DNA of 64,000 bases from NCBI GenBank assembly GCA_001799675.1, contig MGTX01000016.1:9876-73875 (forward strand), given 5' to 3'. This document shows, piece by piece, positions 2,085-55,612 of this stretch (positions within the stretch are counted from its first letter, which is position 1; every line of letters begins with the position of its first letter). Source of the DNA: Elusimicrobia bacterium GWA2_66_18 (GTDB lineage Bacteria > Elusimicrobiota > Elusimicrobia > UBA1565 > UBA9628). The position numbers and the translations under genes were made by a program. The notes beneath the pieces were generated by a model, which worked only from the letters and a program-made list of their open reading frames with translations, was not told the DNA's origin and ran no database searches.

Positions 2085-2160
2085 ACGGAACGATAATTAC
2101 AAGGTTAGCATTAATGCGGCTTAGCATCAATAGCTATAGGAGCATATTATCATATATATA
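2085..2160 (-). promoter_or_regulatory. AT-rich putative promoter region for the minus-strand operon 2081->1
   Basis: Sharp local AT-rich island (ttgcacggaacgataattacaaggttagcattaatg...tatcatatatata) in a 66% GC background, immediately 5' of the MKNYRVT ORF. Confidence 0.25.
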
Positions 2161-2455
2161 GCCTGCGCTGGATACTGCCGCGCCCGTGGAAAGCGCCGCC
2201 CCGCGAAGCGGGACTTGGACGGGCTGTTCGGATCAGTTCCTCGTGCTTGCGAGCCTCGCTCTCGATGAGGTCGCGCTCAGCCTGGCTCAGACGGTTACAG
2301 ACGCGCTTGGGCGTGCTGCTCTCGGCGATGAACGCCTTGATTCCTCGCGCTGCCAAGCGCCGCTTCCATCCGTAGTAGGTCGACGATGGTATCTCGAGTT
2401 CCCGTAGCCGTTGGACCAGCTTGGGCTCGCGCGATAGCTCCTCGACGAGCCTCAC
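2150..2455 (-). pseudogene. Transposase N-terminal (helix-turn-helix) fragment, IS3/IS481-like; truncated
   Basis: 101-aa ORF carrying LRELEIPSSTYYGWKRR, the typical HTH motif of IS transposase OrfA-type proteins. No catalytic domain follows. Confidence 0.5.
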
Positions 2456-2472
2456 CTTCTCCTTCGGGATAT

Positions 2473-2829
2473 GGACTTCAGATCGGGACGGTATTGGCTG
2501 ACGCCGGATACGGGACGGACACGTCGTTTCGAGATGAGATCACGAAGCTGGAACAGATGTATTGCGTGGGTATTCAGCCCGGGATCACCGTGTGGAGACC
2601 AGGTATGACGCCGCTACCGGCGAAGCCTCGTCAGCGGAGAGGACGTCCGCCGACGCTGTTGCAACGCGGTCCTGGGCATGAGCCGGTGAACGTCGGTGAG
2701 GGCGGCGCATCGCGACGAGCGCCGGCAGAAGATGCGAGACATTGCGGTACTGGATCTCTCGGAAGATTTTACGCGAGCTGCCTCGCTGCCCCTGCTGCGG
2801 GTTGGACGTGCGCCGTATTTGACACAGTA
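2473..2829 (+). pseudogene. IS701/IS4-like DDE transposase C-terminal fragment
   Basis: VLADAGYGTDTSFRDEITKLEQMYCVGIQ...RRGRPPTL resembles the conserved C-terminal (E-containing) block of IS701-family transposases. It has no N-terminal half and sits at the front of an artefactual 466-aa ORF. Confidence 0.45.
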
Positions 2830-2832
2830 AGA

Positions 2833-3732
2833 CTAGCGCCCCGGACTCTTGGCCGATACGGCCTTCCGGATAGCCGCGATGTGGGCCGGAGTCGTGCCGC
2901 AGCAGCCCCCGATGATGTTCGCCCCGGCCTCCAGGAGCGCTGCGACCTTCGAGGCCATCAGCTCCGGCGTCTCGCCGTAGACGGCCCTGCCGCCGCGCAT
3001 CTCGGGCATGCCCGCATTGGACTGGACGAGCAGGGGGATGCGGGTGGACCGGAGGAACTCCCGCGCGATCTCGACCATATTGTCTATGCCGTTGCCGCAG
3101 TTGGAGCCGACCACGTCGGCTCCGGCCTTGGCCAGGCCCTCGGCCGCCTGCGCGACCGATACCCCCATGATCGTCCTGTAGCCTTTCTTGGTGCGGTCGA
3201 AGGTCATGGTGGCCATGACCGGGACCCCGGGGGCCGCGGACTTCGAAGCCTCCACCGCCAGAACGGCCTCGCCGAGGTCCGTCATGGTCTCGACGCAGAC
3301 CACGTCGGCCCCCGCCGCGGCGGCCGCCTTGAGCTGCCGGCAGAAGGCTCGGCGAACCTCCTCCGGGTCGGCGTCGCCGTAGGGCTTGAGCATCCTGCCC
3401 GTGGGCCCGCAGGAGAACGAGACCAGGGCCTGGCCTCCCACGGCCCTGCGCACGGCCTCCACGGCCGACCGGTTGACCTCCTCGGTCCTGTCGTCGAGCC
3501 CGTACTGGGCGAGCTTCATGGGCGAGCCGCCGAAGGTGTTGGTCTGGACCAGGTCCGCTCCGGCCTCCAGGTAGAGCCGGGCGATCTCCTCGAGCACCAC
3601 GGGCCTCTCCAGGTTCACCGCTTCCGGGCAGTCCCCGGGCTTCAACCCCCGCTCCTGGAGCATGGTGCCCATGGCCCCGTCCGCGACCAGGACCTGCCCC
3701 GCGCGAAGCCTTTCGAGCAGCCCGGCCGTCAT
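2833..3732 (-). CDS. Methylcorrinoid:homocysteine methyltransferase-like protein (homocysteine-binding domain, PF02574-type; MetH N-terminal-module homolog)
   Basis: 299-aa C-terminal part of the 540-aa track ORF, starting at MTAGLLERL. Motifs GADLVQTNTFGGS and GGCCGTTPAHI match the Hcy-binding (zinc) domain of MetH/BHMT/MmuM. The low-complexity 240 aa upstream in the same ORF overlap the corrinoid gene and are not called. 4-nt ATGA overlap with the upstream gene. Confidence 0.75.
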   Translation of the reverse strand: MTAGLLERLRAGQVLVADGAMGTMLQERGLKPGDCPEAVNLERPVVLEEIARLYLEAGADLVQTNTFGGSPMKLAQYGLDDRTEEVNRSAVEAVRRAVGGQALVSFSCGPTGRMLKPYGDADPEEVRRAFCRQLKAAAAAGADVVCVETMTDLGEAVLAVEASKSAAPGVPVMATMTFDRTKKGYRTIMGVSVAQAAEGLAKAGADVVGSNCGNGIDNMVEIAREFLRSTRIPLLVQSNAGMPEMRGGRAVYGETPELMASKVAALLEAGANIIGGCCGTTPAHIAAIRKAVSAKSPGR

Positions 3733-4406
3733 CGCCCCACCGCGGCCTTGAGGCGGTCCACCGCGCTGGCCGCGTCGAAAGCGTAGAGGTCCGCCCCTAT
3801 CTGCCGGGCGTAGTCCTCGGAGACCGGAGCCCCCCCCACGATGACGCGCAGCTTCCCCGACAGCCCGCGCTTCTTGACCAGGTCCACGACGTCCTTCATG
3901 ACCGGCATGGTGGTCGTCAGCAGGGCGGACAGCCCCAGGAAGCCCGCCTCCTCCCGCACCGCGGCGTCCACGAACGCCTCCGGGATGATGTCCTTTCCCA
4001 GGTCCACGACGTCGAAGCCGGCGCCCTTGAGCATGATGCTGACGAGGTTCTTGCCGATGTCGTGAAGGTCGCCGTGCACCGTGCCCAGGACCACCTTGCC
4101 GATGTTCGGGACCCCTTCCTTGGCGAAATGAGGCTTGAGATGCTTCATGCCGGCGTTCATGGCCTTGGCCGAGAGCAGGACGTCGGGGAGGAACACCTCG
4201 TGCTCCCTGAACTTCACCCCCACCGCATTCATCCCGGCGATGAGGCCCTTGTCGAGGATGTCCCTGGCCTTCAGGCCCTGGCCGAGCGCCTCCCGGGTCA
4301 GTTCCGAGACCGTCTCTTCGTCCCCCTCTTCCAGCGACTGCACGATCGATGCGAGGATCTCCATCCTGCCTCCTAGCGGCGCCCCCGGCAGGTCCGGTGC
4401 GAGCAC
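3729..4406 (-). CDS. Corrinoid (cobalamin)-binding protein, MtgC/MtbC-like
   Basis: 225 aa. B12-binding cap followed by a Rossmann domain with the DxHxxG motif (VHGDLHDIGKNLV). Confidence 0.85.
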   Translation of the reverse strand: MLAPDLPGAPLGGRMEILASIVQSLEEGDEETVSELTREALGQGLKARDILDKGLIAGMNAVGVKFREHEVFLPDVLLSAKAMNAGMKHLKPHFAKEGVPNIGKVVLGTVHGDLHDIGKNLVSIMLKGAGFDVVDLGKDIIPEAFVDAAVREEAGFLGLSALLTTTMPVMKDVVDLVKKRGLSGKLRVIVGGAPVSEDYARQIGADLYAFDAASAVDRLKAAVGR

Positions 4407-5089
4407 CGGCCGCAGAAAGGGAACGCGTTCTTGAACTCGTGGATGCCCGGCTCACCGCAGACCAGCACCCCGGATACGGACTTGAGCGGCTCCATCAGGA
4501 GGCTCTTGCCGAGGGTCACGCCGATCACCTCGGGCTTGAGCAGGTCGAAGAGCCCCCGCTGGGCGCTGATGTGCCACCCGCAGTAGCCGGGGCTGTAGCG
4601 CAGGGTCCTGCGGCTCGAGGGGACCCTCCCTGCCGCGACCAAGGCCCCTCCGAAAGCCTCCTGGACCGCCTCGGCGCAGCGGTCGGCCGCGGCCGACGCG
4701 GCGGCGTCGAGCACGTAGCCCAGCACGAAATCGTCGGCCTCGAAGAGCTCTGCGATGCGGCGGCTGACCGGCCCGCCCAGGGTGATCGCGAACAGGGCCA
4801 TGGCCTGCGCATGGGGGTATATCCCGGCCAGGGGCGTCCGCACCTCGTTGAGGCCCGAGCCACGGAACACGCCGTCGAACTCCGGCATGGAGACCATCTG
4901 GTAGACGGCGGACGGCTCGCAGAGCCTGCCGAGGAGGTCCAGGGCCTTGTCCATGTAGGCGTCTAGCCTCGGGTCCGGCTCGATGTCCCCGGACATCCCC
5001 TGCAGAGCCAGGACCGCGGCCCTTTCCGGGCGGACGCTATCGGGCGAGAATCTCAGGATTTGCCGCATCGTCAAGTCTTCCAGCATCAT
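4373..5089 (-). CDS. MetH activation-domain-like protein (putative SAM-dependent reductive reactivation of the corrinoid protein)
   Basis: 238 aa. RYSPGYCGWHI resembles the RxxxGYxxC SAM-binding motif of the MetH reactivation domain. First gene of the minus-strand corrinoid operon. Confidence 0.5.
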   Translation of the reverse strand: MMLEDLTMRQILRFSPDSVRPERAAVLALQGMSGDIEPDPRLDAYMDKALDLLGRLCEPSAVYQMVSMPEFDGVFRGSGLNEVRTPLAGIYPHAQAMALFAITLGGPVSRRIAELFEADDFVLGYVLDAAASAAADRCAEAVQEAFGGALVAAGRVPSSRRTLRYSPGYCGWHISAQRGLFDLLKPEVIGVTLGKSLLMEPLKSVSGVLVCGEPGIHEFKNAFPFCGRCSHRTCRGRR

Positions 5090-5124
5090 TTTAGCTAAAA
5101 TGTCGCGTCATTAAGGAGGACTCA

Positions 5125-6573
5125 ATGGTCCCGGAAGTTCGCATTTTGAGCGACGAGGAAATCCGGACGCTTCACGGCGCCGCCCTGGATGTCCTCGCTA
5201 AGGTCGGCATCCGCTATGGAAGCAGGCGCTGCCTCGAACTCCTCGAGGCCGAAGGGCAGAAGGTCGACTACGGCTCGGGCATTGCCTGGATCCGCCCGGA
5301 CCTCGTCGAGCGCTGCATCAAATCGACCCCGCGCACCATCACCCTGGGGGGGCGCATCCCAAAGCACGACATGGTGCTCGACGGCTCCTGTCTGCGCGTC
5401 GCGACCAACGGGCAGGCCACCTTTGTGCAGGATCACCGCACGGGCAAGCGCCGCCGAGCATGCGTCCAGGATCTGCGCGATTCCACCCGCATGGGCCATC
5501 ACCTAGACGGCATCGATTACATCTGGCCGATGGTCGTGCCGTCCGATGTCCCCGGCGAGAGCCGAGGGCTGCACGAGATGTACCATTCGTTCGCCTGCTC
5601 GAGCAAGCACATCCAGCACGAGATCCAGGTTCCGGCGCACGTTCCGCTCGCGCTGGAAATGCTCGAGGTCCTGATGGGAAGCAAGGCGGAGGTCCGCCGC
5701 CGGCCTCCGTTCTCGGTCGTGTCGTGCACGGTGTCTCCTCTGCAGCACGAGCCGATGATGGCCGAGTTATCCATCGACCTTGCGCGCGCCGGGATCCCGA
5801 TCGCCGTCTGGCCGATGCCGCTGACCGGCGCGACGGCGCCGCTCAGCGTGCCGGCGACCTGCTTGATGAGCATCGTAGAGTTCCTCTCGGGCGTGGTGCT
5901 TTTCCAGTCGGCGGCGCCGGGCTGCCCGCTGATCTTCCCTTTCGGTCCGGAGATACTCGACATGCGGTCGGGGATGGCGGCCTGCGGCGGGCCGGAGATC
6001 CCGCTGTTCAATCTGATCCTAGGCCAGATGGCCAGGTACTACGATGTCCCGTCCATCGGCGTGGGGCTCAATTCGGACGGCAAGATCCCGGGGATCCAGG
6101 CGGCCTACGAATCGATGCAGACAGGATTGGGGGCGGCTCTCTCGGGGGCCGATCTGCTCGTAGGAGTCGGCGTGCTCGACGACAACAACACGATGTCGCT
6201 GACCCAGATGGTCATTGAGGCCGAGATGGCCCGGATGGTCAAGCGCGTGCGCAGCGGCGTGACGGTCAACAGCGCGACCCTGATGACCCACCTGATCGAA
6301 AAGGCGGGACCGGGGCAGGACTACCTCGGATTCAAGGAGACCCGCGATGGGCTGCGGCGAGGCGAGGTCTTCTTCCCGGGATTCGGCTACCGCAACAGCT
6401 ACGACCAGTTCTTCAAGGACGGCCGCGACGAGCTCGACGCGGCCCGAGCCGAGGTCGAGCGCCTGCTCGCCATGCCCGACCCGGACCCGCTCCCACCCGA
6501 GGTCGACAGCGAGCTCAGGCGCATCGTCGCCGCGGCCGACAAGGCATGCTCCGTGCCGGCGTCTCACCAATGA
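5125..6573 (+). CDS. MttB-superfamily substrate:corrinoid methyltransferase (non-pyrrolysine; quaternary amine/glycine-betaine-type MtgB-like)
   Basis: 482 aa. N-terminus RILSDEEIRTLHGAALDVLAKVGI is typical of trimethylamine methyltransferase family proteins. No in-frame amber codon. Divergently transcribed from the corrinoid protein operon. Confidence 0.8.
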   Translation: MVPEVRILSDEEIRTLHGAALDVLAKVGIRYGSRRCLELLEAEGQKVDYGSGIAWIRPDLVERCIKSTPRTITLGGRIPKHDMVLDGSCLRVATNGQATFVQDHRTGKRRRACVQDLRDSTRMGHHLDGIDYIWPMVVPSDVPGESRGLHEMYHSFACSSKHIQHEIQVPAHVPLALEMLEVLMGSKAEVRRRPPFSVVSCTVSPLQHEPMMAELSIDLARAGIPIAVWPMPLTGATAPLSVPATCLMSIVEFLSGVVLFQSAAPGCPLIFPFGPEILDMRSGMAACGGPEIPLFNLILGQMARYYDVPSIGVGLNSDGKIPGIQAAYESMQTGLGAALSGADLLVGVGVLDDNNTMSLTQMVIEAEMARMVKRVRSGVTVNSATLMTHLIEKAGPGQDYLGFKETRDGLRRGEVFFPGFGYRNSYDQFFKDGRDELDAARAEVERLLAMPDPDPLPPEVDSELRRIVAAADKACSVPASHQ

Positions 6574-6577
6574 CCGC

Positions 6578-7948
6578 ATGACCTCCGCGCGCCGGCGGCT
6601 GGGTTTTTTACCGCTCGTCGGGGTGGTCTTCTGTCTCTCCTCCTCGGGGCCGTTCGGCATCGAGGAGATGGTCGCCGCCTCCGGCCCCGGCCTGACCATC
6701 CTCATGCTGCTCGCCATTCCTCTGCTCTACGGCCTTCCGCTCGGCCTGGCTGTCGGAGAGATGAACGGCCGATTCCCGGTGGAGGGCGGCTACTACCGCT
6801 GGATACGCGCCGTGTTCGGCGATGTCTGGGGATTCCAGGCGGGGTGGGGCGCGTGGCTCGGGTCCTTCTTCGATGGAGCCGCTTACGCCGTGCTGGTGGC
6901 GGAGTATTTGCAGCCGCTCCTGCATATGACTCCGATGGCCGGAATCCTCGACGCCCACCCGTTCCTGGCGCGACAAGCGATCTGCCTCGGGGTGATAGGA
7001 TCCTGCACCCTGGCCAACTTGCGCGGCATCAAGCTGGTCGGCTGGTCGACCCTCGTCTTCATGATCTTCGTGATCAGCCCGTTCGTGGTGATGTGCGCCA
7101 TGGGGGCGACGCATTGGGAACATAATCCGATGCTCCCCATCAAACATCCCGACATCGGATGGGGACCGGCGCTCGGGATCGGCGCGATGCTCTGCATGTG
7201 GAACTACAGCGGCTACGAATCGCTGTCGACCGCTGCCGAGGAGATCGAGGATCCGCGGCGCAACTACTTCAAGGCGGTGCTTATCTCCATCTGCCTGTCA
7301 GTGCCGATCTATCTCTTGCCGATGCTGACGATGCTCGCCACGACTCCCGACTGGACCGCGCTCAAGGCGGGCGCCTACCCTGCAGCCGCCGGATTCATCG
7401 GAGGTCCGGCGCTTGGAGTGTGGGTCGGGCTGGCCGGGGCGGTCAGCAACCTGGCTCTCTTCAACGCCTACACGCTGGTCTACTCGCGCATCCCGTTCGC
7501 CATGGCCCAGGACGGCTTCCTGCCGAAAGCCCTGTGCCGCACTCATGCCAGGTTCGGGACCCCCTGGGTGTCGCTGCTGTTCGGGGCCGCCGTCTACTCC
7601 CTCCTGACGTTCCTCTCGTTCGCCGAGCTGATCGTCATGGAAGTGTGGCTCTTCTCAGTCATCTATATCCTGATCTATCTGGCCCTATGGGTCCTGCGCC
7701 GGCGCGAGGGCGGCGGCCCCCCCGCAGCCGCGCCGGGCGGCGAGGTCCGCTTCACTCTGCCCCTCGGCTCGCGCGGCATCTGGCTGGTGATCGGGCCGCC
7801 CATCCTGCTGATCCTGGCCGGCATGTTCGGCAGCGGACCGGAGTACATCCTCTTCGGCGGACTTGCGCTGGCGAGCGGCCCGGCGATCCTCGGGATCAGC
7901 CGCATCATTCGCAGGCTTCGCCGGGCCCGATCGACCGGCGCCGCCTGA
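6578..7948 (+). CDS. APC-superfamily amino acid/organocation permease
   Basis: About 12 predicted TM segments. Start chosen at MTSARRRLG (ATG 6578), 4 nt after the MttB stop. The track ORF beginning at 6347 overlaps mttB and is rejected. Placement suggests uptake of the MttB substrate. Confidence 0.7.
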   Translation: MTSARRRLGFLPLVGVVFCLSSSGPFGIEEMVAASGPGLTILMLLAIPLLYGLPLGLAVGEMNGRFPVEGGYYRWIRAVFGDVWGFQAGWGAWLGSFFDGAAYAVLVAEYLQPLLHMTPMAGILDAHPFLARQAICLGVIGSCTLANLRGIKLVGWSTLVFMIFVISPFVVMCAMGATHWEHNPMLPIKHPDIGWGPALGIGAMLCMWNYSGYESLSTAAEEIEDPRRNYFKAVLISICLSVPIYLLPMLTMLATTPDWTALKAGAYPAAAGFIGGPALGVWVGLAGAVSNLALFNAYTLVYSRIPFAMAQDGFLPKALCRTHARFGTPWVSLLFGAAVYSLLTFLSFAELIVMEVWLFSVIYILIYLALWVLRRREGGGPPAAAPGGEVRFTLPLGSRGIWLVIGPPILLILAGMFGSGPEYILFGGLALASGPAILGISRIIRRLRRARSTGAA

Positions 7949-8152: not shown

Positions 8153-8464
8153 TCACTGAGCCTCGCGTACCGGCGACCAAAAGGCGCTCACGATGATGAT
8201 CGGCACCCGGACGCCGCGCTCGGCAAGCTTGCCGCAGAACTGGTGTCCGTCCATCCGCGGCATCATCAAATCCAGCGCGATGAGATCGGGCTGGAATTGG
8301 TCCAGTATGGTGAGGGCGGTCAATCCGTCCGGGGCGCCCGCGACGTCAAAGCCCGCCGCGCTCATAGTGACTCGAAACAACTCTCGAAGCATCTCGTCAT
8401 CGTCGACGATGAGGATGCGCTGTTTGGGGGGCTCATCCCCGTCGCCGGGAAGAAAGTCGGTCAC
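8153..8464 (-). CDS. Single-domain response regulator (CheY-like receiver)
   Basis: ILIVDDDEMLRE...DLIALDLMMPRMDG receiver signature; 103 aa. Confidence 0.75.
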   Translation of the reverse strand: MTDFLPGDGDEPPKQRILIVDDDEMLRELFRVTMSAAGFDVAGAPDGLTALTILDQFQPDLIALDLMMPRMDGHQFCGKLAERGVRVPIIIVSAFWSPVREAQ

Positions 8465-8612
8465 CTTCCCAGTGTAGCCGTTTCCCGGTAAACATCCAGG
8501 AAATTTCCGGTGAACTTTGGCGGCATCGGGCGACCGGCTTGACCGACGCGACGGGAATTTTCGATACTCCTCACAGGATGAGGCCCGCGCTCGCGTCGGA
8601 CAGGAGGCGCTC

Positions 8613-9467
8613 GTGATCTTAACGCGCGCAGCGCTCGCGATCGTGCTCGGTATTTTTTGCGGCCGTTCTCACGCGGCTGATTGGATTTCCGCGCAGACCG
8701 TGGGAATCCTGGTATCGCAAAGCCGCGAACTCGCGCGTTTGCGCGCCGCCTATGTCCGCAAGCCTGCCGGCGAGGAACTTCTGACGCGCGCCGATGCGGC
8801 CTTTCACGCGGGTCACTATTGGGAGATGCGGCGACTGATCATTAAAGTTGTCGATCTCGATCCGCAGGACGATGCGACCCTGGGCACGCTGGCCTACATG
8901 ATATCCATGTATCGATCCGACGGAGACACGGCCGACGGCAAGGAAAACGTTCGCTACGCCGTGTCGGACTTCGCGGACCTGGGAGGACTCACGCACAAAG
9001 ACCTGCTGCAGGTCGTCATGGATCCGACCGAGGACCGTTTCGCCAAAGCGCGCGCCGTTCTCGATTGGGGAGAGCATTTCAATCGCGCGAATCCGGACTT
9101 CTATCTGGAATACGCAGAATATATCGGTTATGGGGCCGGCTCCTACCACAAAGCGCACGCGAACAACGACCGGGCCTTCGAGGAGTTTCGGGCGGGCGTC
9201 GATGCCTATCAAAAAGCCCTCAACCTGATTGGCGCCCGGCCGTCCCGGCAGGCCCGCAAACCGGAGATGATGCTTGTGCGCGACCAAGCCAACCTCTGTC
9301 TGCGCCTAATCGAGTTGATGCCGGAGCGAGGCGCTCCTTACCGTGCGCTCGCCGCAAGAAACTACCGCCGCATCCTGGCCTCGCCTCTGGCAGGCGACAG
9401 CCTTAAAGAGTCGGCTCGCCGCCATTTGACCGAACTCGGCGAGCCCGCGCCCGCCTTAAGCCGCTGA
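8613..9467 (+). CDS. Hypothetical secreted protein or lipoprotein
   Basis: Track ORF 8517..9467. A probable GTG start gives the signal peptide MILTRAALAIVLGIFCG (lipobox-like LGIFC). No conserved domain recognised. Confidence 0.4.
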   Translation: MILTRAALAIVLGIFCGRSHAADWISAQTVGILVSQSRELARLRAAYVRKPAGEELLTRADAAFHAGHYWEMRRLIIKVVDLDPQDDATLGTLAYMISMYRSDGDTADGKENVRYAVSDFADLGGLTHKDLLQVVMDPTEDRFAKARAVLDWGEHFNRANPDFYLEYAEYIGYGAGSYHKAHANNDRAFEEFRAGVDAYQKALNLIGARPSRQARKPEMMLVRDQANLCLRLIELMPERGAPYRALAARNYRRILASPLAGDSLKESARRHLTELGEPAPALSR

Positions 9468-10008
9468 GCCGACGAAACAGCCCATTTCCAGCGCTCATTT
9501 GCGCCGACAAAGTGTCCCGTTTAAGCTGATCTTGAACATTCCATAAATGGCTTTCATAGCACACTGCTCGCAGGTAAAGTCAGACGCCGATATCCTCTAG
9601 AACCCGATTTTCCTGATCCTCCCTTTCAAGCCGTGCCGGCAGATTCCCTGGACACGGCTGAGACAAAGGGCGCCGCTGATGTCGGTCGACGCGCGCAGTT
9701 TGGTGGCTTGGCAACCTCCCCTCAATACGCTTCGGGAGGCACGGCCCCACGTGTATTGTAATTTTTAATTATACCAGACAACTACTTCGGGCGAATTCAG
9801 CGAGTGTAATTCTTCAGCGCTTTCGGGAGTTTCCAGGGCCTATAATTCTGGCTCTCGGGAATTTACAACCACGCAAGGCTCGAAATCTCTCGAAATAGGT
9901 CTTTTGCCGGCACTCTTGCGACCCAAAGGCCCAGGTTGCCGTTAATAACCGGGCTCATACTGGAATGGACGGCGCTGTATGGGACGTAGACGCGCCTTAG
10001 AGGCCAGG

Positions 10009-10998
10009 ATGAAACAACGTGTTATTTGGCTGGTTCTTCTTTTCGGCGTGTGGAGAGTTCCGGCCTTCGCAAGTGAACAGAGCGCGATCAAGCGCCTCCA
10101 GGTTCTCGCCGCTGAGTACCCAGCGGCGCCGATGGTCGTCGTCAACCCCGCGCTATCCCGGAGAAGAGAGACTCCCGCTCCCAAAAGCGTAACCGTCCCA
10201 TTGCGATTCAACTACGGCTATTTCGGGGGCCCGAAATCCATGAACGTGCCCTGCGCGTTCAACGGCGGAGCCCGCAGGTCCTGTTTCCTCGACACCGGCT
10301 CGATGATTTCCGCCGTGCCCGAAGACGCGGAGTCCCTGGGCTATCCCAAGGTCGGCCGGTCGAGAATGCAGGCGGCATCCGGAACGCCGCTCTTGTTCGA
10401 CCTGGTCGCAACCGAGAAAGTCATGATTGGGGACGCCGCCATCCCCCTCGCGAGCATCGGACGGAGCGCCGCCATCACCCACCAAGAAGGGATGATCGGA
10501 AGCGACGCGCTGGCCGATCAGGTCGTGCTGTTCGATTTCGAGAAGAAGGTTCTGATCTTCTCGCCGGGCGGCGCGATTGGTCAAAAACTCGGCAAGGCCG
10601 GGATGGGCCGCAGCGACCTCGGCGACGCCCTGCTGATCATTCCCCTTTCCATTTCCTTGAACACCCTCAGCACGATGTGGGACACCGGCGTTATGAATCC
10701 GCTGACACTGCGACAGGAATGGATCGATCAACATTCCCAACTCTTCCGCTACAAATGGGACTCGACCGCCGGAATGGACGCGGCGGGACATATGATCCAG
10801 TCCAAATCCTACGAATTATTGGCTCCCCTAGACATCGGGCAGCTTTACGTCGCGCCGGGCCTCCTCGTCTATGGGGTTGATTTCCCGCCGGAATACGACT
10901 TCGATGCCATCCTGGGGTTCGATCTGCTCAAGCAGTGCAACTGGTTTTTCGATCTCCCGAATAGATCCTGGGCGGCATTTCTGCCCGCCCCCGATTAA
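10009..10998 (+). CDS. Secreted putative aspartic peptidase (two D-T-G motifs; pepsin/retropepsin-like clan AA)
   Basis: Signal peptide MKQRVIWLVLLFGVWRVPAFA. FLDTGSMISAV near the N-terminus and MWDTGVMNPL in the second half, each in a hydrophobic-hydrophobic-D-T-G context. Confidence 0.45.
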   Translation: MKQRVIWLVLLFGVWRVPAFASEQSAIKRLQVLAAEYPAAPMVVVNPALSRRRETPAPKSVTVPLRFNYGYFGGPKSMNVPCAFNGGARRSCFLDTGSMISAVPEDAESLGYPKVGRSRMQAASGTPLLFDLVATEKVMIGDAAIPLASIGRSAAITHQEGMIGSDALADQVVLFDFEKKVLIFSPGGAIGQKLGKAGMGRSDLGDALLIIPLSISLNTLSTMWDTGVMNPLTLRQEWIDQHSQLFRYKWDSTAGMDAAGHMIQSKSYELLAPLDIGQLYVAPGLLVYGVDFPPEYDFDAILGFDLLKQCNWFFDLPNRSWAAFLPAPD

Positions 10999-11241
10999 TG
11001 GGTGTCAGGATTCGGCGCAGGGGACTTCGGGTCGCCGACATCGCCTGCGGCGCCGGCCGCCACGCGCTGGCCTTGGCTCGGCGCCTTCAGGTTTCACGAA
11101 ATCCACACTTTCCGCCATTGGACCCATTTTGGGGTAGATCTCCTGTAGCCTTTTGGTCTTCCCCTCAGACCTATTCAGGATCAGGGCGTCCTGCGGTACA
11201 ATGTTCTCGTCTCGGCCATCCGCCGGAATGGAGGCACTCCG

Positions 11242-12996
11242 ATGCAGTCGCGAGCCCTGTTTTGCGTCAGCTTCTTCTCCTTCGTCGTGGCCGGTGTGCA
11301 GGCCTACGCCCAGGTCGTTGAGGCCCACTTCTTGCGCGCCGGCCGGGTCACCATCGTCCCTCAGATGACCGGCGTCGCAGGGATGCCGCCGATCGGCGGC
11401 ATAAACGCGAGCCTCGGCGTCTGCGCGATCTCGCAGACGCCGACTCTGCCGTCTCCGGTCGCGTATCAGGCGGCGGCCCTCGCGCCCGCGGCAGGCGGTC
11501 TGAAGACTCCCGCCGAGCAGTCGTTGCGCCTCAATGCCGTCTTCGAGTCCATCGTGCCCGCGCTGAATGCCCTCAAGGACCCCTCTCTCGACTCTTCCGG
11601 GGCCAAGGCCGCCGGCCAGATGCTAATGAATAAGCTCCTCGACACGAGCGAGCCTGGCGCGTCCGCCGTCCCAGGCGTCTACGCCGCTGCGCCGCCCTCC
11701 GGCAAGGGTTCGCGCTCGCAGTCCATGGTCTCTCAGGTCTCCTACGCCGAAGGCGTTTCGACGCGCCAGCGAGAGTTCTTCGACGAAACGCTGAGCCGCC
11801 GCAAGGCGGGTTGGAACCGCGGTTTCGCCCAGATGGGCGTCAAGCTTCAAGGGCGCGTCAAGCCCGTGCTGAGCGTCAAGGCCGCCGAGGACCGCATCCC
11901 GAAGATGGCCGCCGCCAGCGAGGTCCGATATATCGTCGAGTGGTCCCAGGGCGAGACGCGCCTTGGCGCGTTCAAGGTCACGATCCGCCTCAAGGACATG
12001 AAGCTCGTCTTCTCGCGTCTGTCGGCTCCGCCCGCCGCCGAAGATAAGCAAATCCGCATCCGCTTGCGCGGGACCGTCATCGCCGAGGCCTTCCCTATCG
12101 AAGTCGAAGTGACGCCGGCGATGATCGAGGAGTTCTTCGAGGCGCACGGCCTGCGCGTGCTCGGCAATCCTGAAAAGGCAACCTGGCTCGTCGCCGTCAC
12201 CGGAGAGGCTCGGGCCGACGCCGTCGCGCGAGAGCTCTCCGGCCAGGGACTGGCGCTGTACGCGACCCCCGTGAAGGGCGATATTCCCGAATCAAGCCAA
12301 CTCTGGGCGATGTTCAAGAAGAAGACCGTCGAGGACACGGGAGTCGTCGAGACGTCCGTCAACGAAGGCGCGATCTCCAAGACCCTGCGCGAGGCGGGCC
12401 TGCGCGTCCTCGAAACCGAACGCAACGGAACTTGGAAACTCGGGGCCTACGACGGCGTTCCCGCCGAAGCGGCCGCCGCCAAGCTCGCGTCCTCCGGCCT
12501 CGTACTCTACGCCGTGCCGCTGCGCTTCGAGGCGGCGCAAGACAGGCAGGTCGTCGTCGAGTTCAAGACGAAGGTCTTGGTCGACCTCAGCGGGGTGAAG
12601 GTCGAAGCCTCGGTGAGCGAGGACGACATCGCCCGCGTCTTGGCCGAGGGAGGCTTCACGGTCGTGGGCGACTACGGCGCGAACTCTTACCGCCTGCAGG
12701 CGCCGGCCGGGACGCGCAACCTCGACGCCCTCGCGGCCCTGCTCGCGACGAAACTCGTCAAGAAGGGCGTCGCGGTGGGGACGCTCGGCGACGAGCGCAT
12801 CCGCCGCGCCGCGCAGGACGCGGCCGACAGGAAGGGCCGCCCGTGGTCCGAGAGCGCATATTACGAGAACCTCTCCGCCGCGCGCACGAGCCTTGAACTC
12901 GCCGGAGCGACCCAGGCCCAGCTCGTGCTCTTCGACAAGCTGGCCGACGAGGCGCCGGCGCTCAACGGCGGCTTCAATCCCTGGTCGGGCGACTGA
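11242..12996 (+). CDS. Secreted hypothetical protein with about three internal ~90-aa repeats
   Basis: Signal peptide MQSRALFCVSFFSFVVAGVQAYA. Repeated modules GLRVLGNPEKATWLVAV.../GLRVLETERNGTWKLGAY.../GFTVVGDYGANSYRLQAP... Confidence 0.5.
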   Translation: MQSRALFCVSFFSFVVAGVQAYAQVVEAHFLRAGRVTIVPQMTGVAGMPPIGGINASLGVCAISQTPTLPSPVAYQAAALAPAAGGLKTPAEQSLRLNAVFESIVPALNALKDPSLDSSGAKAAGQMLMNKLLDTSEPGASAVPGVYAAAPPSGKGSRSQSMVSQVSYAEGVSTRQREFFDETLSRRKAGWNRGFAQMGVKLQGRVKPVLSVKAAEDRIPKMAAASEVRYIVEWSQGETRLGAFKVTIRLKDMKLVFSRLSAPPAAEDKQIRIRLRGTVIAEAFPIEVEVTPAMIEEFFEAHGLRVLGNPEKATWLVAVTGEARADAVARELSGQGLALYATPVKGDIPESSQLWAMFKKKTVEDTGVVETSVNEGAISKTLREAGLRVLETERNGTWKLGAYDGVPAEAAAAKLASSGLVLYAVPLRFEAAQDRQVVVEFKTKVLVDLSGVKVEASVSEDDIARVLAEGGFTVVGDYGANSYRLQAPAGTRNLDALAALLATKLVKKGVAVGTLGDERIRRAAQDAADRKGRPWSESAYYENLSAARTSLELAGATQAQLVLFDKLADEAPALNGGFNPWSGD

Positions 12997-15944: not shown

Positions 15945-17867
15945 TCATGATCGGTCCAGGATCTCCCTCACCCTCTGGGCGAGGACCTCCGGCGGGATCG
16001 GCTTCTGTAGTATATCGCCCTTCAAGACTTTGAGCGAATCGAGTTCGCGGTCGTCGATATAACCGGTGATGAAGGCCACCTTCAGGTCCGGACGCAGCCG
16101 GACGGCCCTGCGGGCCAGCTCGCCGCCGCCGATGCCGGGCATCACGACGTCCGTCAGAAGCAGATGGACGCGACTGCCCGCTTCCTTTAGGAAGGCAAGC
16201 GCTTCCTCGCCGCCGCAAGCGGACAAGACGCGATAGCCCCGCTCCCGAAGTATCCTCTCGTTGAGACGCAGGATCGCCTCGTCGTCCTCCACGATGAGGA
16301 TGGTCTCCCGGCCCCGAGCGGAGCCGGCGACCTGGCTGCGCGCCTCGAGCCGCGGCGGCGCCGCCTCGGCCATCGGCAGACAGATGGTGAAGGTCGTGCC
16401 TTGGCCGACGGCGCTGCGCGCGGCGACGTCGCCTCCCGCCTGAGAGACGATGCCGTAGACCGTCGATAAGCCCAGGCCCGTCCCCTTGCCCGGCGGCCGG
16501 GTCGTAAAGAACGGCTCGAAGAGGTGGGCGAGGACCTCGGCCGGCATGCCGCAGCCCGTGTCCGCGACCTCCAGGCGCACGCAGTCCGGCGCGGCGCAGG
16601 GACGGCGCCGGGGCAGGCAGTCCGCGCCCCCCTTCCAAATCTCCGTCTTCAAGATCAGCCGCCCCCCCTTCGGCATGGCTTCGCGAGCGTTGACGCACAA
16701 GTTCATGATCACCTGCTCCATCTGGCCGGGGTCCGCCCGGATGACGGCCGGCTCGGGGCAGAGGGAACTCTCCAGCTTAATGTCCTCGCTGATGAGACGG
16801 CGCAGCATCTTCTGGAGGTTTCGGATCAACTCGTTGAGGTCCAGGACCACGGGCTGGACCAACTCCTTGCGGCTGAAGATGAGCAGTTGGCGGGTCAGCG
16901 CCGCGGCGCGCGCGGCCGCGGCCGCGATCTCCGCCACGTCCGCGCGGCGGGGGTCCGTCTGGGTGAGGCCCTCCTGCAGGAAGCTGCAGTTGCCCATGAT
17001 CGTCATCAGGATGTTGTTGAAATCGTGAGCGATCCCGCCGGCGAGAATCCCGATGCTCTCCATCTTCTGCGCCTGCAAGAACTGGGCTTGAAGGCGCTTG
17101 CGCTCGGTGATGTCGCGGATGCTGCATTGAACCACGCCGGCGCCGTCGGCGGTGCAGGCGCCGCCGACGAACTCCACGTCGATGCGCCGGCCGTTCTTCG
17201 CCGTCAGAGGCAGGTCGTCGCGGCGGACGGGGGCAAGCCTCTTGAGATCCTGCAAGTCCGCCTTGGCGGCCTCCCAACCCTTGAACGCGTCGAGTTCCCA
17301 CGGCTTCTTGCCGAGGATCTCGCCGGGCTCATAGCCGAGCAGGGCCAGGAGGGAGGAGTTGGCGTCGAGGATCTCGCCGCTCGCCGCGTCCAGGATGAGG
17401 ATGCCGTCCTGGGACGACTCGAAGAGGCGCCGGTAGCGCCTCTCGGACTTCTTCACTGCCTCCTGCGCCGAGTTGCGCTCGCGGCGCAGCGCCGCCTCCC
17501 CGAGGGCGCGGGAGATCATCGACCCGAGGCTGACCAGCCGCGACTTCATCACGTAGGCGAAGGCTCCTTGGAGCATCGCCGCCACGGCCTGCTCCTCGCC
17601 GATGGCGCCCGAGACGAGGATGAAGGGGATGTCGAGACCCCGGTCCTTCAACAACCGCAGCGCGCTCATCCCGTCGAAGCGCGGGAGCCTGAAGTCGGCG
17701 AGGATCAGGTCCACCTCCGGCTTGAGGGCGGCGACGTAGTCGGCCTCGGACTCCACGATCAGGGGATCGACCGAGAAGCCCGCGCGCTTGAGCTCATGGA
17801 TCTCCAACTCCGCGTCCTGCGGATTGTCCTCAAGAATGACGACCTTCAGCGTGCCTTTCGTCTCCAT
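15945..17867 (-). CDS. Hybrid sensor histidine kinase (REC-PAS-HisKA-HATPase-REC)
   Basis: N-terminal receiver ([10 protein letters not shown]...LILADFRLP), PAS, H-box AHDFNNIL, ATPase G-boxes (DTGCGM, GTGLGLS), C-terminal receiver ([11 protein letters not shown]...[10 protein letters not shown]). Confidence 0.85.
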
Positions 17868-17873
17868 GGCGGG

Positions 17874-18320
17874 CTACGGCAAGGGCGGCTGGTTGATCAG
17901 GAGCCAATAGAGGCCCAACAGCCTGACGGCCTCCGAAAAATCCTCGAATTGGACGGGTTTGACGACATAGCTGTTGACTCCCAGCCGGTAGCTCTCGACG
18001 AGGTCTCTCTCCTCGCGCGAGGAAGTCAGCATCACGACGGGGATATCCCTCGTATTCGGGTCCGACTTGATGCGCCGCAGGACCTCTTTTCCGTCCACCT
18101 TCGGCAGATTGAGGTCGAGAATGACCAGCTTGGGCTTCAGGACGGCTCCCTCGGCCCGGGGGGCGCTCCCGCCGCCGAAGAGGCAATCCAGGGCCTCCTG
18201 ACCGTCGCGGGCGACCTGTATGTCGTTGGCGACGTGGTGTTTGCGCAGGACGCGGAGGGTCAACTCCTCGTCCTGCGCGTTATCCTCGACCAACAGGATA
18301 TCGACTGCATGCTGTTTCAT
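17874..18320 (-). CDS. Single-domain response regulator (receiver only)
   Basis: DILLVEDNAQDEEL...LVILDLNLPKVDG...VVMLTSS. Confidence 0.85.
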   Translation of the reverse strand: MKQHAVDILLVEDNAQDEELTLRVLRKHHVANDIQVARDGQEALDCLFGGGSAPRAEGAVLKPKLVILDLNLPKVDGKEVLRRIKSDPNTRDIPVVMLTSSREERDLVESYRLGVNSYVVKPVQFEDFSEAVRLLGLYWLLINQPPLP

Positions 18321-19669
18321 CTCTTCCTCCCGCCCAAGGTGAATAAGAACTCCGCTCCGCGATCCGGTTCGGCCCGCGCCCAGACCCGCCCCCCGTGACG
18401 CTCGACGACGCGCGCGACGATGGCCAGCCCCACCCCCGTCCCCTCGTACTCCTGCGCGGGATGGAGGCGCGAGAAGACCTTGAAGAGCTTGTCGGCGTGG
18501 CGCATGTCGAAGCCCACGCCGTTGTCCTTGACGCGGTAGACCGTCTCCCCCGCCTCGTCATGGGAGTCGATCTCGATGAGGGCTTGCGGCCGCGCGCGCG
18601 TGAACTTGAGCGCGTTGGACAGGAGATTGACCCAGACCTGCTTCAAGAGGACGAAGTCCCCCGCGCAAGGGGCGAGCTCTCCGACCTGGAAGCGCGCTTG
18701 GCGGCCCTGGCTCGGGAGATCCAGGCTCGCGATGGCCGCGCGCACGACCGCCTCCATGGAGACGGGGGAGTTGTCCATGTCCTGGCGGCTCAGCCGAGTG
18801 AAAGCGAGCAGATCATCGATGAGCCGGCCCATCGTCTGGGCGCTCTTGCGCACCAGGCCCAGGTAGCGCCGGCACTCCGGCTCCAGCTTCGGGGCGTAGT
18901 CCTCCATGAGGATCTGGGAGAAGCCGTCCATCGCGCGCAGGGGGGCGCGAAGATCGTGCGCGACGGAATAGGCGAACGCCTCCAACTCCTTGTTGACGCT
19001 CTCCACCAGGGCCGTCCGCGCCCGGACCCGCTCCTCGAGTTCGCCGTTAAGGCGGAGGACCTCATCCTGCACCCGTTTGCGCTCAGCCTCCAGCCGCCGG
19101 CGGTCCGTCAGGTCCCGGAGCACGATCACGAAGCCGCCGCTCTCCTTCTTCTCGTTGAGCATCGGCGAGAGAGTGAACTCGACGGGGAAGATCTCCCCGT
19201 TTTTCCTTTTGACTTCATACTCGAAGCGCAGGGGCCGCTCCTTCTCGAACGCCTCGCGAACGAACTCGCCGGCATGCAGATAATGTTCATGGTCGACATG
19301 GACTATCTCGGTGGACCGGTTCTTCATCTCCTCGACGGCGCACCCGAACATCGTGCCGGCGGCCGCATTGGCATCGACGATCCTCCGGTCCGGGGAAATG
19401 ATCATCACGCCGTCCATCTGAGCTTCGAAGACCGCCCGGAACCGGCCCTGGGATTGGCGGAGGGCCGCCATGCGGACCAGCAGATCGTCCCGCGCGGGCG
19501 CAACGACCCACGCGGAAATGAGCGGCGAGATGATCACCGTCAACGCAACGACGTCTATTGGAATCGCCCGCGTGCCGTGGATATCGAGAAGAGCGAAGAC
19601 GATCATCACCAGGGCTTCTGCAAGGACCACGATGACCAAGATGCGCAGGAAGGCGGCGCGCGGCTTCAT
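18317..19669 (-). CDS. Membrane-anchored PAS sensor histidine kinase
   Basis: Two N-terminal TM helices, PAS, H-box SVAHDLRAPLR, HATPase (VKDNGVGFD, GTGVGLA). ATGA overlap with the downstream RR. Confidence 0.85.
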   Translation of the reverse strand: MKPRAAFLRILVIVVLAEALVMIVFALLDIHGTRAIPIDVVALTVIISPLISAWVVAPARDDLLVRMAALRQSQGRFRAVFEAQMDGVMIISPDRRIVDANAAAGTMFGCAVEEMKNRSTEIVHVDHEHYLHAGEFVREAFEKERPLRFEYEVKRKNGEIFPVEFTLSPMLNEKKESGGFVIVLRDLTDRRRLEAERKRVQDEVLRLNGELEERVRARTALVESVNKELEAFAYSVAHDLRAPLRAMDGFSQILMEDYAPKLEPECRRYLGLVRKSAQTMGRLIDDLLAFTRLSRQDMDNSPVSMEAVVRAAIASLDLPSQGRQARFQVGELAPCAGDFVLLKQVWVNLLSNALKFTRARPQALIEIDSHDEAGETVYRVKDNGVGFDMRHADKLFKVFSRLHPAQEYEGTGVGLAIVARVVERHGGRVWARAEPDRGAEFLFTLGGRKR

Positions 19670-20781
19670 CGTCCGGCCCCCGTCGGGGAAGGCGACCGGA
19701 CGCCCAGGACCGCGGAGACCGCCACGGGCCGCTCGATCCCATGGAAGGTCATCATCCCGAGGTCTTGGAACTCGAACTCGTCTTGGATCGCGGCGCGGGT
19801 CTCCGGCCCCACCAGGATCTGCCCCGGCAGGGCGATCTTCTCCAGCCGTGCCGCCAGGTTGATCGGCGAGCCGATCACGCTGTATTCGGTCCGCTCCTTG
19901 CTTCCCAGGCAGCCCGCCACGACCTCTCCCGTGTTGATCCCGATGCCCAGGCCCAGGGGCCTGAGGCCTTTGAGCGCCCGCTGGCGACCCAGGATCTCCA
20001 TGGCCTGCTGGGTCTTCACCGCCGTACGGACCGCGGCCGCCTCGTGGCGTTCCAGACGGATCGGAGCGTCGAAGAGGGCCATCACTCCGTCGCCGAGGAA
20101 CTTATTGAGAATCCCCCCCTCCGCGCGGATCGCGTCCTGGAGGATGGTGAAGATCTCGTTCAAGTCGGAGGTCGCCTGCTCGGGGGGGACGGCGGCGGCG
20201 TAGGAGGTGAAGTCGCGCACGTCGGCGAAGAGGACGCTCACGCGGCGGCGCTCGCCCCGCATCCAGAAGTCCTCGGGATGGGTCATCGCCGCGCGCGCGA
20301 CCTCGGGCGTGGCGAACTGGCCGAAGATATCGCGCACGCGAGTCAGCACCGACAGCTCCAGATGCGCCCGGCGCAGCTCCGAGCGTAGCTCCTTCTCCCG
20401 GGCCAGCTCGGCGCAGAGGCGCCGCTTCTCGAGACAGCGATGGATCACCGAGCGCAGGTAGTCCTCGGACACGGGCTTGACCAGATAGTCGTAGGCCTCG
20501 CCCCTCATGCCTTCGATGGCGCTCTCCAGCCGGGGGTAGGCGGTCATGATGATGACGTCGGTGACACCCGAGGCGCGGAAGCGCCGCGTGACCTCGTTGC
20601 CGTCGATGGCGCCGGAGAGCATCAGGTCGGTCACCACGATGTCGAAGCCCTCCTCCAGGCGGGAGACCGCGTCCTCCCCCGAACTGACGGATTCGACCGC
20701 GTGGCCGCCGTTTGTCAGCATCCTGACGACCGCCGAGCGGACCGACTCGTCGTCCTCGACGACCAGTATCTTCGCCTTCAT
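19666..20781 (-). CDS. Response regulator with class III adenylate/guanylate cyclase output domain (REC-CYC)
   Basis: Receiver (ILVVEDDESVR...IVVTDLMLSG) followed by cyclase motifs VSVLFADVRDFTS and KFLGDGVMALF. Confidence 0.8.
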   Translation of the reverse strand: MKAKILVVEDDESVRSAVVRMLTNGGHAVESVSSGEDAVSRLEEGFDIVVTDLMLSGAIDGNEVTRRFRASGVTDVIIMTAYPRLESAIEGMRGEAYDYLVKPVSEDYLRSVIHRCLEKRRLCAELAREKELRSELRRAHLELSVLTRVRDIFGQFATPEVARAAMTHPEDFWMRGERRRVSVLFADVRDFTSYAAAVPPEQATSDLNEIFTILQDAIRAEGGILNKFLGDGVMALFDAPIRLERHEAAAVRTAVKTQQAMEILGRQRALKGLRPLGLGIGINTGEVVAGCLGSKERTEYSVIGSPINLAARLEKIALPGQILVGPETRAAIQDEFEFQDLGMMTFHGIERPVAVSAVLGVRSPSPTGAGR

Positions 20782-20786
20782 GGTCT

Positions 20787-40443: not shown

Positions 40444-40454
40444 GTCTCCCCCTC

Positions 40455-43651: not shown

Positions 43652-43700
43652 GGCGAGATACGCTCCCTGGAGATAGGGGATGTTGATGCGGACTCCGATC

Positions 43701-45392: not shown

Positions 45393-45466
45393 CGACGCCA
45401 GCGCCCGCGGACCCGCCGAGATGTGCCGAACCGTCGGCGGGACCTTCGCTTCTCGTCCAGGGATCT

Positions 45467-47166: not shown

Positions 47167-47170
47167 GGCC

Positions 47171-50260: not shown

Positions 50261-50887
50261 CTAGGCCGCCGGCTCTTTCCTGAAGACCAGGAAGAATCCG
50301 GGAACAGGATATTCGGAGGTTGCGCTCCCGCCTGAAGGGATGGCGAGGTCTTGATAGCGCCCGGAAAACCCGGCGTCAAGAAGCAGCTCGATCGTTTCCT
50401 TCTTGCCGCAGCTGCCGCTTATCAGCCGGTCCTGGTAATAGATGAGACGGCCCCCTGTTCCCAACATCCGCAGTATCTCCCGCGCATAGCGCGATGCGAC
50501 GCCCATGTCCCCTTTAGATTCGAACCTGAGCGAATTGATCATGATGATCAGATCCAGATCGCCGAAGGAATCCATGCCCGTCGCATAATCGCTTCTGGCC
50601 CTTTTCACTCTGATGTTATCGATGTGATTATTCCGGGCATATCTTCTCAGATGCTCCACCCAACGCACACGGCTATCCGTTGCGTGAACAAAACCTTTTT
50701 TTCCAACCAAGCCCGCGATCTTGACCGCGAAATATCCGGCTCCCGCTCCGATATCCGCCACTTTCATGCCCGGCTTCACAGCCATTGTTTTCAATTGGAG
50801 CCTGGCATCGGCAGAGCGATCCCTCACGCGATCCTCAGTCAACTGCCAGCCGGCATAATGGGGTCGGCGCTTAAGCGATTTGAGCAC
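50261..50887 (-). CDS. Class I SAM-dependent methyltransferase
   Basis: Motif I VADIGAGAGYFA; 208 aa; GTG start overlapping the upstream stop by 1 nt. Confidence 0.7.
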   Translation of the reverse strand: MLKSLKRRPHYAGWQLTEDRVRDRSADARLQLKTMAVKPGMKVADIGAGAGYFAVKIAGLVGKKGFVHATDSRVRWVEHLRRYARNNHIDNIRVKRARSDYATGMDSFGDLDLIIMINSLRFESKGDMGVASRYAREILRMLGTGGRLIYYQDRLISGSCGKKETIELLLDAGFSGRYQDLAIPSGGSATSEYPVPGFFLVFRKEPAA

Positions 50888-52935: not shown

Positions 52936-53025
52936 CCCATCTCCGCGGTGTCGCATCCGCCTTCCTGAAAAACGTCCGATCAACGGTCCCCTGCGCCCGT
53001 GAATATTTCTCAGCGCTGCACATGA

Positions 53026-55535: not shown

Positions 55536-55612
55536 AGGCGCGGTAGAGTCCGACGATCGGGCGCTGCCGGCTCAGAGGCCGCGCCGTCGTCTCGATTGAG
55601 GGGGCTTGGCCC

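Follow-up and report, generated by a model that had tools for sequence, protein, structure and literature searches.

A predicted folate-independent, corrinoid-dependent methionine synthase of separate proteins, with an apparently exchanged donor enzyme, in a groundwater Elusimicrobia genome

Here we describe a five-gene cluster at positions 2833..7948 of a 64-kb stretch of a groundwater Elusimicrobia genome (Elusimicrobia bacterium GWA2_66_18, contig MGTX01000016.1; the whole stretch is hereafter the window, to which all coordinates refer), which we propose to encode a folate-independent, corrinoid-dependent methionine synthase made of separate proteins. Judging from domain content, catalytic residues and gene order, we put the probability that the cluster is such a system, with the full pathway operating in its host, at about 0.55. 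Methionine synthesis is usually taken to need methyl-folate, as in MetH and MetE, or, in a few lineages, a corrinoid protein of the acetyl-CoA pathway, as in core-MetE. If our proposal is correct, bacteria would have one more way of making methionine, methylated compounds in the environment would have a direct sink, and more cobalamin would be needed in sediments and groundwater; methionine auxotrophy called from genomes, and genes annotated as 'trimethylamine methyltransferase', would have to be looked at again.

Systems of this type are already predicted in the literature. In Ca. Electryoneota and 'diverse bacteria', Williams et al. (2022) described a cluster in which an MttB/MtgB homologue without pyrrolysine is encoded together with an activation protein, a corrinoid protein and a homocysteine S-methyltransferase, and hypothesised corrinoid-dependent methionine synthesis from a methyl donor that they did not name (PMC9324843). 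Mausz et al. (2025) tied MtgB, MtgC and the homocysteine (Hcy) module MtgE to methionine synthesis in Ruegeria and demonstrated genetically that the corrinoid protein is shared (PMC12478193). The view taken in the initial annotation of this DNA, that known MttB/MtgB systems end in tetrahydrofolate (THF) or coenzyme M, is therefore out of date. What we add is a measure of how conserved and self-contained the operon is, together with evidence that its donor enzyme is exchangeable; full-text literature searches found no report of biochemistry for the clustered, pterin-free system.

The gene cluster and its core proteins

The cluster consists of five intact genes, three on the minus strand and two on the plus strand, in divergent arrangement, and is bordered by insertion sequence (IS) remnants:

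2150..2832, no strand given: IS remnants (two overlapping fragments of transposase genes), immediately downstream of the Hcy methyltransferase gene
2833..3732, minus strand: stand-alone homocysteine S-methyltransferase (Hcy-MT; MT2), 299 aa, PF02574
3729..4364, minus strand: corrinoid (B12-binding) protein, 211 aa from the ATG at 4364 (the open reading frame, ORF, extends to 4406), PF02607 and PF02310
4373..5089, minus strand: stand-alone MetH-type S-adenosylmethionine (AdoMet) reactivation (activation-domain) protein, 238 aa, PF02965
5090..5124, no strand given: divergent intergenic region, 35 bp, the junction of the two modules
5125..6573, plus strand: MttB-superfamily non-pyrrolysine methyltransferase (MT1, 'clade B'), 482 aa, PF06253
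6578..7948, plus strand: APC-family permease, 456 aa, AA_permease_2

All five domain assignments made earlier for this region were upheld by profile matches, and only the permease start had to be moved, position 6347 belonging to an over-long ORF and the true start being 6578. The stop of the corrinoid gene overlaps the start of the Hcy-MT gene by 4 nt. The reactivation protein may truly begin at M8 (position 5068), in which case the intergenic gap is 56 bp; the Shine-Dalgarno sequence of MT1, AAGGAGG, sits inside 5090..5124. Comparison with the nearest relatives gave dN/dS values of 0.15-0.53 for the cluster genes, which points to purifying selection on all five, and the same cluster was found on contigs of at least five independent assemblies from groundwater and related samples, so that an assembly artefact is excluded. 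No SAM or cobalamin riboswitch was matched by Rfam at gathering thresholds anywhere in the window, and promoter and terminator consensus scans of the cluster returned nothing above shuffled sequences, with no promoter-like site in 5090..5124. A compositional island was considered and rejected, as the GC content of the cluster (0.672) is only about one standard deviation above the window mean (0.642, sd 0.026 in 5-kb windows).

The product of 2833..3732 matches the full PF02574 S-methyl_trans profile (E 3.9e-70), and its residues C212, C277 and C278 align with the zinc ligands C247, C310 and C311 of E. coli MetH; it has the MetH-type Hcy barrel with a Cys3 zinc site. The initial annotation had called this protein Hcy-binding and had set against that call the outcome of a pterin-binding protein; the call held, and no match to the pterin-binding family PF00809 was found in it or in any other protein of the cluster. 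Its closest NCBIfam matches, the N-terminal half of YitJ (2e-77) and BHMT (1.3e-63), are both under cutoff, and the BHMT model (PRK07534) gives 215 bits against a cutoff of 338, so that the curated equivalog level is not reached. Homologues of about 300 aa, 60-74% identical to it, occur in Zixibacteria, Acidobacteriota, Planctomycetota, Elusimicrobiota, Wallbacteria and others. In Gemmatimonadota, Anaerolineae and Armatimonadota, a longer kind of Hcy-domain protein, of about 630 aa and YitJ-like by length, is often encoded right beside a full-length MetH (examples are our loci L032, L043, L046, L053, L057, L061, L069 and L071).

Both the PF02607 cap and the PF02310 Rossmann domain are matched in the corrinoid protein, and the cobalamin-binding motifs D113/H115/G118 (DxHxxG), S160 and G191-G192 are all in place, the counterparts in E. 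coli MetH being D757-x-H759-x-x-G762, S804 and G833-G834. These residues mark it as a His-on corrinoid protein. Its best NCBIfam matches are MtgC_2 (1.4e-62), pyl_corrinoid and MtbC, all above MetH (1e-39), and by these scores it resembles the MtgC/MttC-type partners of MttB enzymes more than the B12 domain of MetH.

The match of the reactivation protein to PF02965 is partial (E 1.2e-9). The AlphaFold (AF2) model of the 238-aa protein, built on 47 homologues, has a pLDDT of 93.3, and its best Foldseek match is the stand-alone T. maritima protein TM0269 (1j6r, E 2.8e-12, TM 0.82), followed by the activation domains of E. coli (1msk), Thermus and human MetH. The RxxxGY motif of E. coli MetH (R1134..G1138-Y1139) is found as R164..G168-Y169, and fold and motif together suggest that the protein binds AdoMet as the MetH activation domain does. 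Four cysteines (C170, C226, C229 and C234) are invariant in the family of core-associated reactivation proteins, and it is tempting to speculate that they form a metal or Fe-S site through which electrons enter when the cofactor is reactivated. C170, in YSPGYCGW, is the additional invariant Cys of the core-associated subfamily, and the other three form a C-terminal CxxCxxxxC. The latter motif also occurs in stand-alone activation proteins encoded beside short MetH genes of Firmicutes (loci with such proteins in our alignment include L039, L044, L052, L060 and L064) and is absent from E. coli MetH; no description of it was found in the literature. In Firmicutes, a gene for a separate activation protein regularly comes before such short MetH genes (about 800 aa).

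Taken as a set, the Hcy, B12 and activation modules are homologous to those of MetH, with the catalytic residues conserved, and the structural match to TM0269 places the activation protein closest to the Thermotoga/Clostridia form of MetH, in which this protein is separate (TM0268/TM0269). Unlike MetH, the cluster lacks a methyl-THF (pterin) module and its three modules are three separate ORFs rather than one polypeptide; its B12 protein is also closer to methylamine-type corrinoid proteins than to the B12 domain of MetH.

The conserved operon and the apparent exchange of its donor enzyme

We refer to the reactivation, corrinoid and Hcy-MT genes as the core, and to the 486-aa MttB homologue that usually accompanies them as clade A. 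A scan of metagenomes (JGI) anchored on the reactivation protein matched more than 590 stretches, spanning Planctomycetota, Acidobacteriota, Bacteroidota, Elusimicrobiota and others; the counts that follow are taken from the best 80. The canonical order is co-directional, running from the MttB homologue through the reactivation and corrinoid genes to the Hcy-MT gene. Indeed, a clade-A MttB gene lies immediately upstream of the reactivation gene in 47 of the 50 loci with room upstream, and corrinoid and Hcy-MT genes both follow in 35 of the 41 loci with enough downstream sequence. The canonical operon was seen, for example, in a metagenome-assembled genome (MAG; L006) and in L093, the closest relative of the window core, while in a member of Phycisphaerales (L007) the corrinoid gene is displaced to a position beside a URO-D gene. 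The same operon was recovered when GTDB was scanned at one genome per species (loci L013 to L092), in Phycisphaerae, Ignavibacteria, two Acidobacteriota and one unclassified bacterium, with a truncated copy in Stahlbacteria.

The surroundings of these operons are highly variable. Across 70 canonical operons, the 78 nearest outside neighbours include no recurrent family (at most 4 of 78) and no conserved transporter, which indicates that the four genes act as a self-contained unit. A pterin-binding gene is found near the operon at one of the best 80 loci (L170), and there is no pterin-binding domain in the 64-kb window, where a tblastn search with residues 354-649 of E. coli MetH gave a best E value of 0.17. 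Since an MttB enzyme and the core are kept together across phyla, the most economical reading is that they form a folate-independent methyl route to Hcy, and we think it quite likely that the canonical operon, as a class, performs this pathway.

The core is also found with other partners. A variant in Bacteroidales, Prolixibacteraceae and Odoribacter (L019 7328..12500, L021 7014..11827 and L022 7411..12545) has the order AraC regulator, corrinoid protein, 540-aa URO-D/Thioredoxin_3 fusion, Hcy-MT, CobW GTPase and activation protein, and contains no MttB gene. URO-D genes also adjoin the Hcy-MT gene at loci of Planctomycetota, Brocadiaceae and Nitrospinota, as well as in L007. The existence of two MttB clades and of URO-D partners suggests that the core trio takes methyl groups from interchangeable donor enzymes.

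The window represents just such a departure from the usual pairing. An MttB/MtgB homologue, the activation protein, the corrinoid protein and the Hcy-MT are encoded side by side, as in the cluster of Williams et al., which agrees with ours in all four protein types and in the function proposed for it, and the core proteins are clearly related to those of canonical operons (Hcy-MT 64-74%, corrinoid protein 48-70% and activation protein 41-57% identical). The co-directional order with a clade-A MttB gene is not what the window shows; its MT1 gene is divergent, is accompanied by an APC permease and belongs to another clade, being only 23-28% identical to the clade-A proteins of our loci (the Williams cluster was compared by description). 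L093, which carries clade A, nevertheless matches the window core at 74% (Hcy-MT), 70% (corrinoid protein) and 57% (reactivation protein); the corrinoid protein of L006 is 58% identical to that of the window. The relatives of the window MT1 lie elsewhere, in a tight clade B of homologues that are 69-84% identical to it, several of them labelled Ca. Polarisedimenticolia.

At four other loci (L009 3378..11842, L010 4377..12842, L095 245..7048 and L096 3339..11776) the clade-B gene resides in a home module of six genes, namely an MttB paralogue, a 98-103-aa protein, two flavoproteins, the clade-B MttB gene and an APC permease. The paralogue (41-45% identity) has Cys at the pyrrolysine position; the flavoproteins (531 and 534 aa) are divergent and CrtI/CrtO-like. 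No corrinoid or Hcy genes were found within about 9 kb of the clade-B gene at these four loci. Only the last two genes of the six occur in the window, where the clade-B gene fills the MT1 slot directly upstream of the reactivation gene, with no second MT1 in the window. At the nucleotide level, window 5119-7881 is 83% identical to L095, the homology beginning 6 nt before the MttB ATG, and window 2870-4945 is 72% identical to the core of L093. The cluster thus looks like a mosaic, in which a clade-B MttB gene and its permease, turned the other way round, have taken over the MT1 slot from the clade-A gene.

The initial annotation had taken the adjoining IS remnants as a sign that the module was mobile. 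The remnants are genuine, though only pieces are left: at 2386..2832 (+), a C-terminal fragment of DDE_5 covers profile positions 160-252 of 272 (E 3.3e-14), and an IS481-like N-terminal fragment at 2150..2455 (-) is a weak match (E 3.5e-5). They fit a rearrangement, and mobility in the sense of a mosaic, with MttB and permease replacing the donor gene, agrees with our data; transposition of the whole cluster is not shown by them. If the exchange is real, the window would be a natural experiment in which the same core works with a different donor enzyme and transporter, arguing for modularity and providing a second MT1 for substrate screens.

Methyl donor, proposed pathway and alternatives

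The MttB homologue of the window matches PF06253 (MTTB) with an E value of 2.2e-77, and its best matches in the PDB are MtgB (9yce, 3.9e-61) and MttB (7xcl, 3.9e-56). The MttB model TIGR02369 scores it at 375 bits, under the cutoff of 525. There is no in-frame TAG in the gene, and Asn and Val align with Pyl334 and Tyr364 of MttB; the protein is an MttB-superfamily TIM barrel without pyrrolysine. Clade A has Leu at the pyrrolysine position and Ser at the position of Tyr364. With both residues replaced in both clades, activation of trimethylamine as in MttB is not expected.

The donor suggested by the initial annotation was glycine betaine or a related compound. MtgB binds betaine through Y97, R312, H348 and F356, of which R312 is kept as the anchor of the acid group in the enzymes for carnitine, proline betaine, gamma-butyrobetaine and phosphocholine (PMC13080624). 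Our alignment gave the following residues at Y97/R312/H348/F356:

Genuine MtgB-like homologues: Y, R, H, Y
Window MT1: G, I, V (or gap), N
Clade B, all members including the window protein: G, I/L/M, V/E/Q/N, N
Clade A: S, Q, S/A, E (Q or V in two)

None of the four betaine-binding residues of MtgB is conserved in the window MT1, which makes glycine betaine an unlikely donor, and this part of the earlier claim is not borne out. The absence of R312 argues for a substrate without an acid anchor. Most likely, then, the donor would be a permanently cationic N-methyl compound that lacks the carboxylate or phosphate anchor of known MttB-family substrates; a choline-like compound or another cationic amine is our guess.

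The permease matches AA_permease_2 (E 1.2e-39), and its NCBIfam matches are generic (amino-acid, polyamine and ethanolamine transporters) and all far under their cutoffs. As it also follows the clade-B MttB gene in L009, L010, L096 and probably L095, this fixed linkage indicates that the substrate is imported, presumably by the permease itself. For the canonical operon, in which a transporter is lacking, the donor may be endogenous or ubiquitous. Other clues to the donor were uninformative. No family or transporter recurs beside the canonical operons, and the flavoproteins of the clade-B home module give only distant scores to CrtI/CrtO-family oxidoreductases. At the Phycisphaerales locus L007 (CP070772.1, 1..10729), an mtnA gene (S-methyl-5-thioribose-1-phosphate isomerase, scoring over the curated cutoff) shares 4 nt with the beginning of the clade-A MttB gene and lies with upstream genes for a class II aldolase, an aldehyde:ferredoxin oxidoreductase (AFOR) and an FGGY kinase, an arrangement that recalls methionine salvage by the dihydroxyacetone phosphate shunt. 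A link to methionine salvage, with a methylthio donor, was not confirmed, since mtnA, the aldolase and DUF819 recur at no other locus and a relative of AFOR was seen once (L119).

Based on these assignments, the APC permease would import a methylated compound, and MT1, as its family suggests, would take one methyl group from it and methylate the corrinoid protein in the Co(I) state. The zinc-dependent Hcy-MT would then pass the methyl group from methyl-Co(III) to Hcy, giving methionine, a step predicted from its family and from synteny. Corrinoid that has fallen to the Co(II) form would be restored by the activation protein, whose fold and motif point to reductive methylation with AdoMet and an electron donor. 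Of the original proposal of direct methionine synthesis without folate, the Hcy-binding MT2, the missing pterin domain in 64 kb and the conserved synteny speak for the route, while betaine as its donor falls away. More tentatively, one may go further and see in the core trio a donor-agnostic methylcorrinoid:homocysteine platform, with a recent swap here that turns an imported amine without an acid anchor into methionine; the canonical operon would then rank as the fourth among the major methionine synthase types.

Such a system would combine features of several known ones. In the MtgB-MtgC-MtgA system of D. hafniense and the MttB-family systems of E. limosum, MT1 is likewise of the MttB superfamily (9yce/2qne is the best solved match of the window protein, 3.9e-61) and the corrinoid protein is of the same type. 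In E. limosum, MtpB, MtcB, MtyB and MthB are interchangeable MT1 enzymes that share one corrinoid protein and one THF methyltransferase. In both organisms MT2 is a pterin-binding methylcorrinoid:THF methyltransferase, and reactivation is carried out by the ATP-dependent RamA, whereas here MT2 is Hcy-binding, reactivation is predicted to be AdoMet-dependent and the substrate-binding residues differ. MtgBCDE of R. pomeroyi and the split MetH of P. inhibens also consist of separate MttB-family, corrinoid and Hcy-binding proteins, and in MtgBCDE one corrinoid protein joins methylated-amine demethylation to methionine synthesis, much as we propose here. There, however, the genes are dispersed, neither function is possible without the pterin-binding MtgD, MtgB is specific for betaine, the corrinoid protein resembles CmuA, and RamA and DUF1638 are credited with reactivation. 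The window genes are clustered, no pterin module was seen in the window and the betaine-binding residues are absent; the corrinoid protein resembles MtgC/MttC, and reactivation appears to be of the MetH type. Neither a pterin-binding MtgD nor RamA/DUF1638 is among the window proteins scanned, such genes being dispersed in Ruegeria. Finally, core-MetE and MesA-D (Price et al. 2021, PMC7857596; Deobald et al. 2020, PMC7005905) also make methionine from methyl-corrinoid without a folate-binding domain, but with an unrelated fold, the MetE C-terminal barrel rather than the MetH Hcy barrel.

Several observations weigh against a dedicated route to methionine in this host. The two gene sets are divergent and not co-transcribed, lying only 35-56 bp apart, and the Arg of RxxxGY varies across the reactivation-protein family. 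Clade B stands beside the core at none of the 50 core loci among the best 80 stretches and at none of the four other clade-B loci, and that the two are coupled here is read from their adjacency in a single species. Because the core is flanked by IS fragments, the arrangement could be a by-product of rearrangement. An IS-mediated event might then have placed a clade-B MttB gene and its permease next to a core that had lost its own MT1; the MttB enzyme would work with a corrinoid protein and an MT2 encoded elsewhere, as it has to in the other clade-B genomes, and the core would be orphaned or served by another MT1. The divergent orientation and the usual residence of clade B in a six-gene module without corrinoid or Hcy genes within about 9 kb would be in keeping with this. 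Against such an accident, the place taken by the clade-B gene, 35 bp from the reactivation gene, is precisely that of an MT1 gene; none of the five genes is broken and all are apparently under purifying selection, and in the populations sampled by five or more assemblies the arrangement is fixed. Moreover, a core without any MT1 would be useless, yet the core is well conserved, and cores that pair with URO-D MT1 families suggest that partner exchange is normal for this platform. We therefore regard accidental juxtaposition as quite unlikely.

The two remaining alternatives question the route rather than the arrangement. The pterin-binding search covered the 64-kb window, and the cluster could be part of a split MetH with a shared corrinoid protein, as in Ruegeria and Phaeobacter, with an MtgD-like methyl-THF subunit encoded elsewhere, MttB mainly feeding THF catabolism and methionine arising mainly from folate. 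A dispersed organisation of this kind has been shown genetically in R. pomeroyi and P. inhibens (PMC12478193), and L170 does have a pterin-binding gene near the operon. We nevertheless think this reading unlikely, because the four-gene operon is compact and self-contained and recurs in highly variable neighbourhoods, a pterin-binding domain is seen at just that one of the best 80 loci and nowhere in the window, and reactivation here would be of the MetH type with AdoMet rather than by RamA/DUF1638 as in roseobacters. In addition, the MAGs of Williams et al. also hold a complete canonical MetH, so the cluster need not be the folate-dependent enzyme (PMC9324843). A further possibility is that the Hcy-MT acts alone, as a cofactor-independent enzyme of the BHMT/MmuM/Bmt type using betaine, a sulfonium compound or S-methylmethionine, while the corrinoid protein and MttB serve a separate pathway. 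Bmt of P. inhibens makes methionine from dimethylsulfoniopropionate or betaine without cobalamin in vitro (PMC12366255), which also counts against the corrinoid route, the Hcy-MT does score on the BHMT and YitJ models, and orphan copies without adjoining corrinoid genes occur at L008, L023, L024 and L026. However, the 4-nt overlap of the Hcy-MT gene with the corrinoid gene, its co-operonic position with the corrinoid and reactivation genes in 35 of 41 loci and the presence of a B12 reactivation protein, which has no role in a direct-transfer enzyme, make direct transfer very unlikely.

Other genes in the window

Outside the cluster, the minus strand holds a set of nitrogenase-like genes (36865..50112) that agrees with the account given by Meheust et al. 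(bioRxiv 10.1101/765248) of 'group VI' nitrogenase paralog loci in lineages IV and V of groundwater Elusimicrobia. It comprises, with a small methyltransferase gene beside it:

36865..38142, 43701..45887, 47171..48439 and 48382..50112, minus strand: NifD/K-like genes
38143..40443, minus strand: 766-aa NifH-Oxidored_nitro fusion
40455..42632, minus strand: radical-SAM/Sel1 protein
46294..47166, minus strand: second NifH-like gene
50261..50887, no strand given: small methyltransferase beside the nitrogenase-like genes

Long ORFs with coding-type GC3 and no Pfam match lie in 8517..12996 and 50887..59982, with lengths of 316, 339, 584, 698, 505, 383 and 981 aa. An orphan response-regulator gene (8153..8464) is located just downstream of the permease. 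A dense signalling block at 15945..21968 (-) encodes a hybrid PAS histidine kinase/response regulator, a single-domain response regulator, a PAS histidine kinase, a fusion of a response regulator with an adenylate/guanylate cyclase, and a GAF-HD protein.

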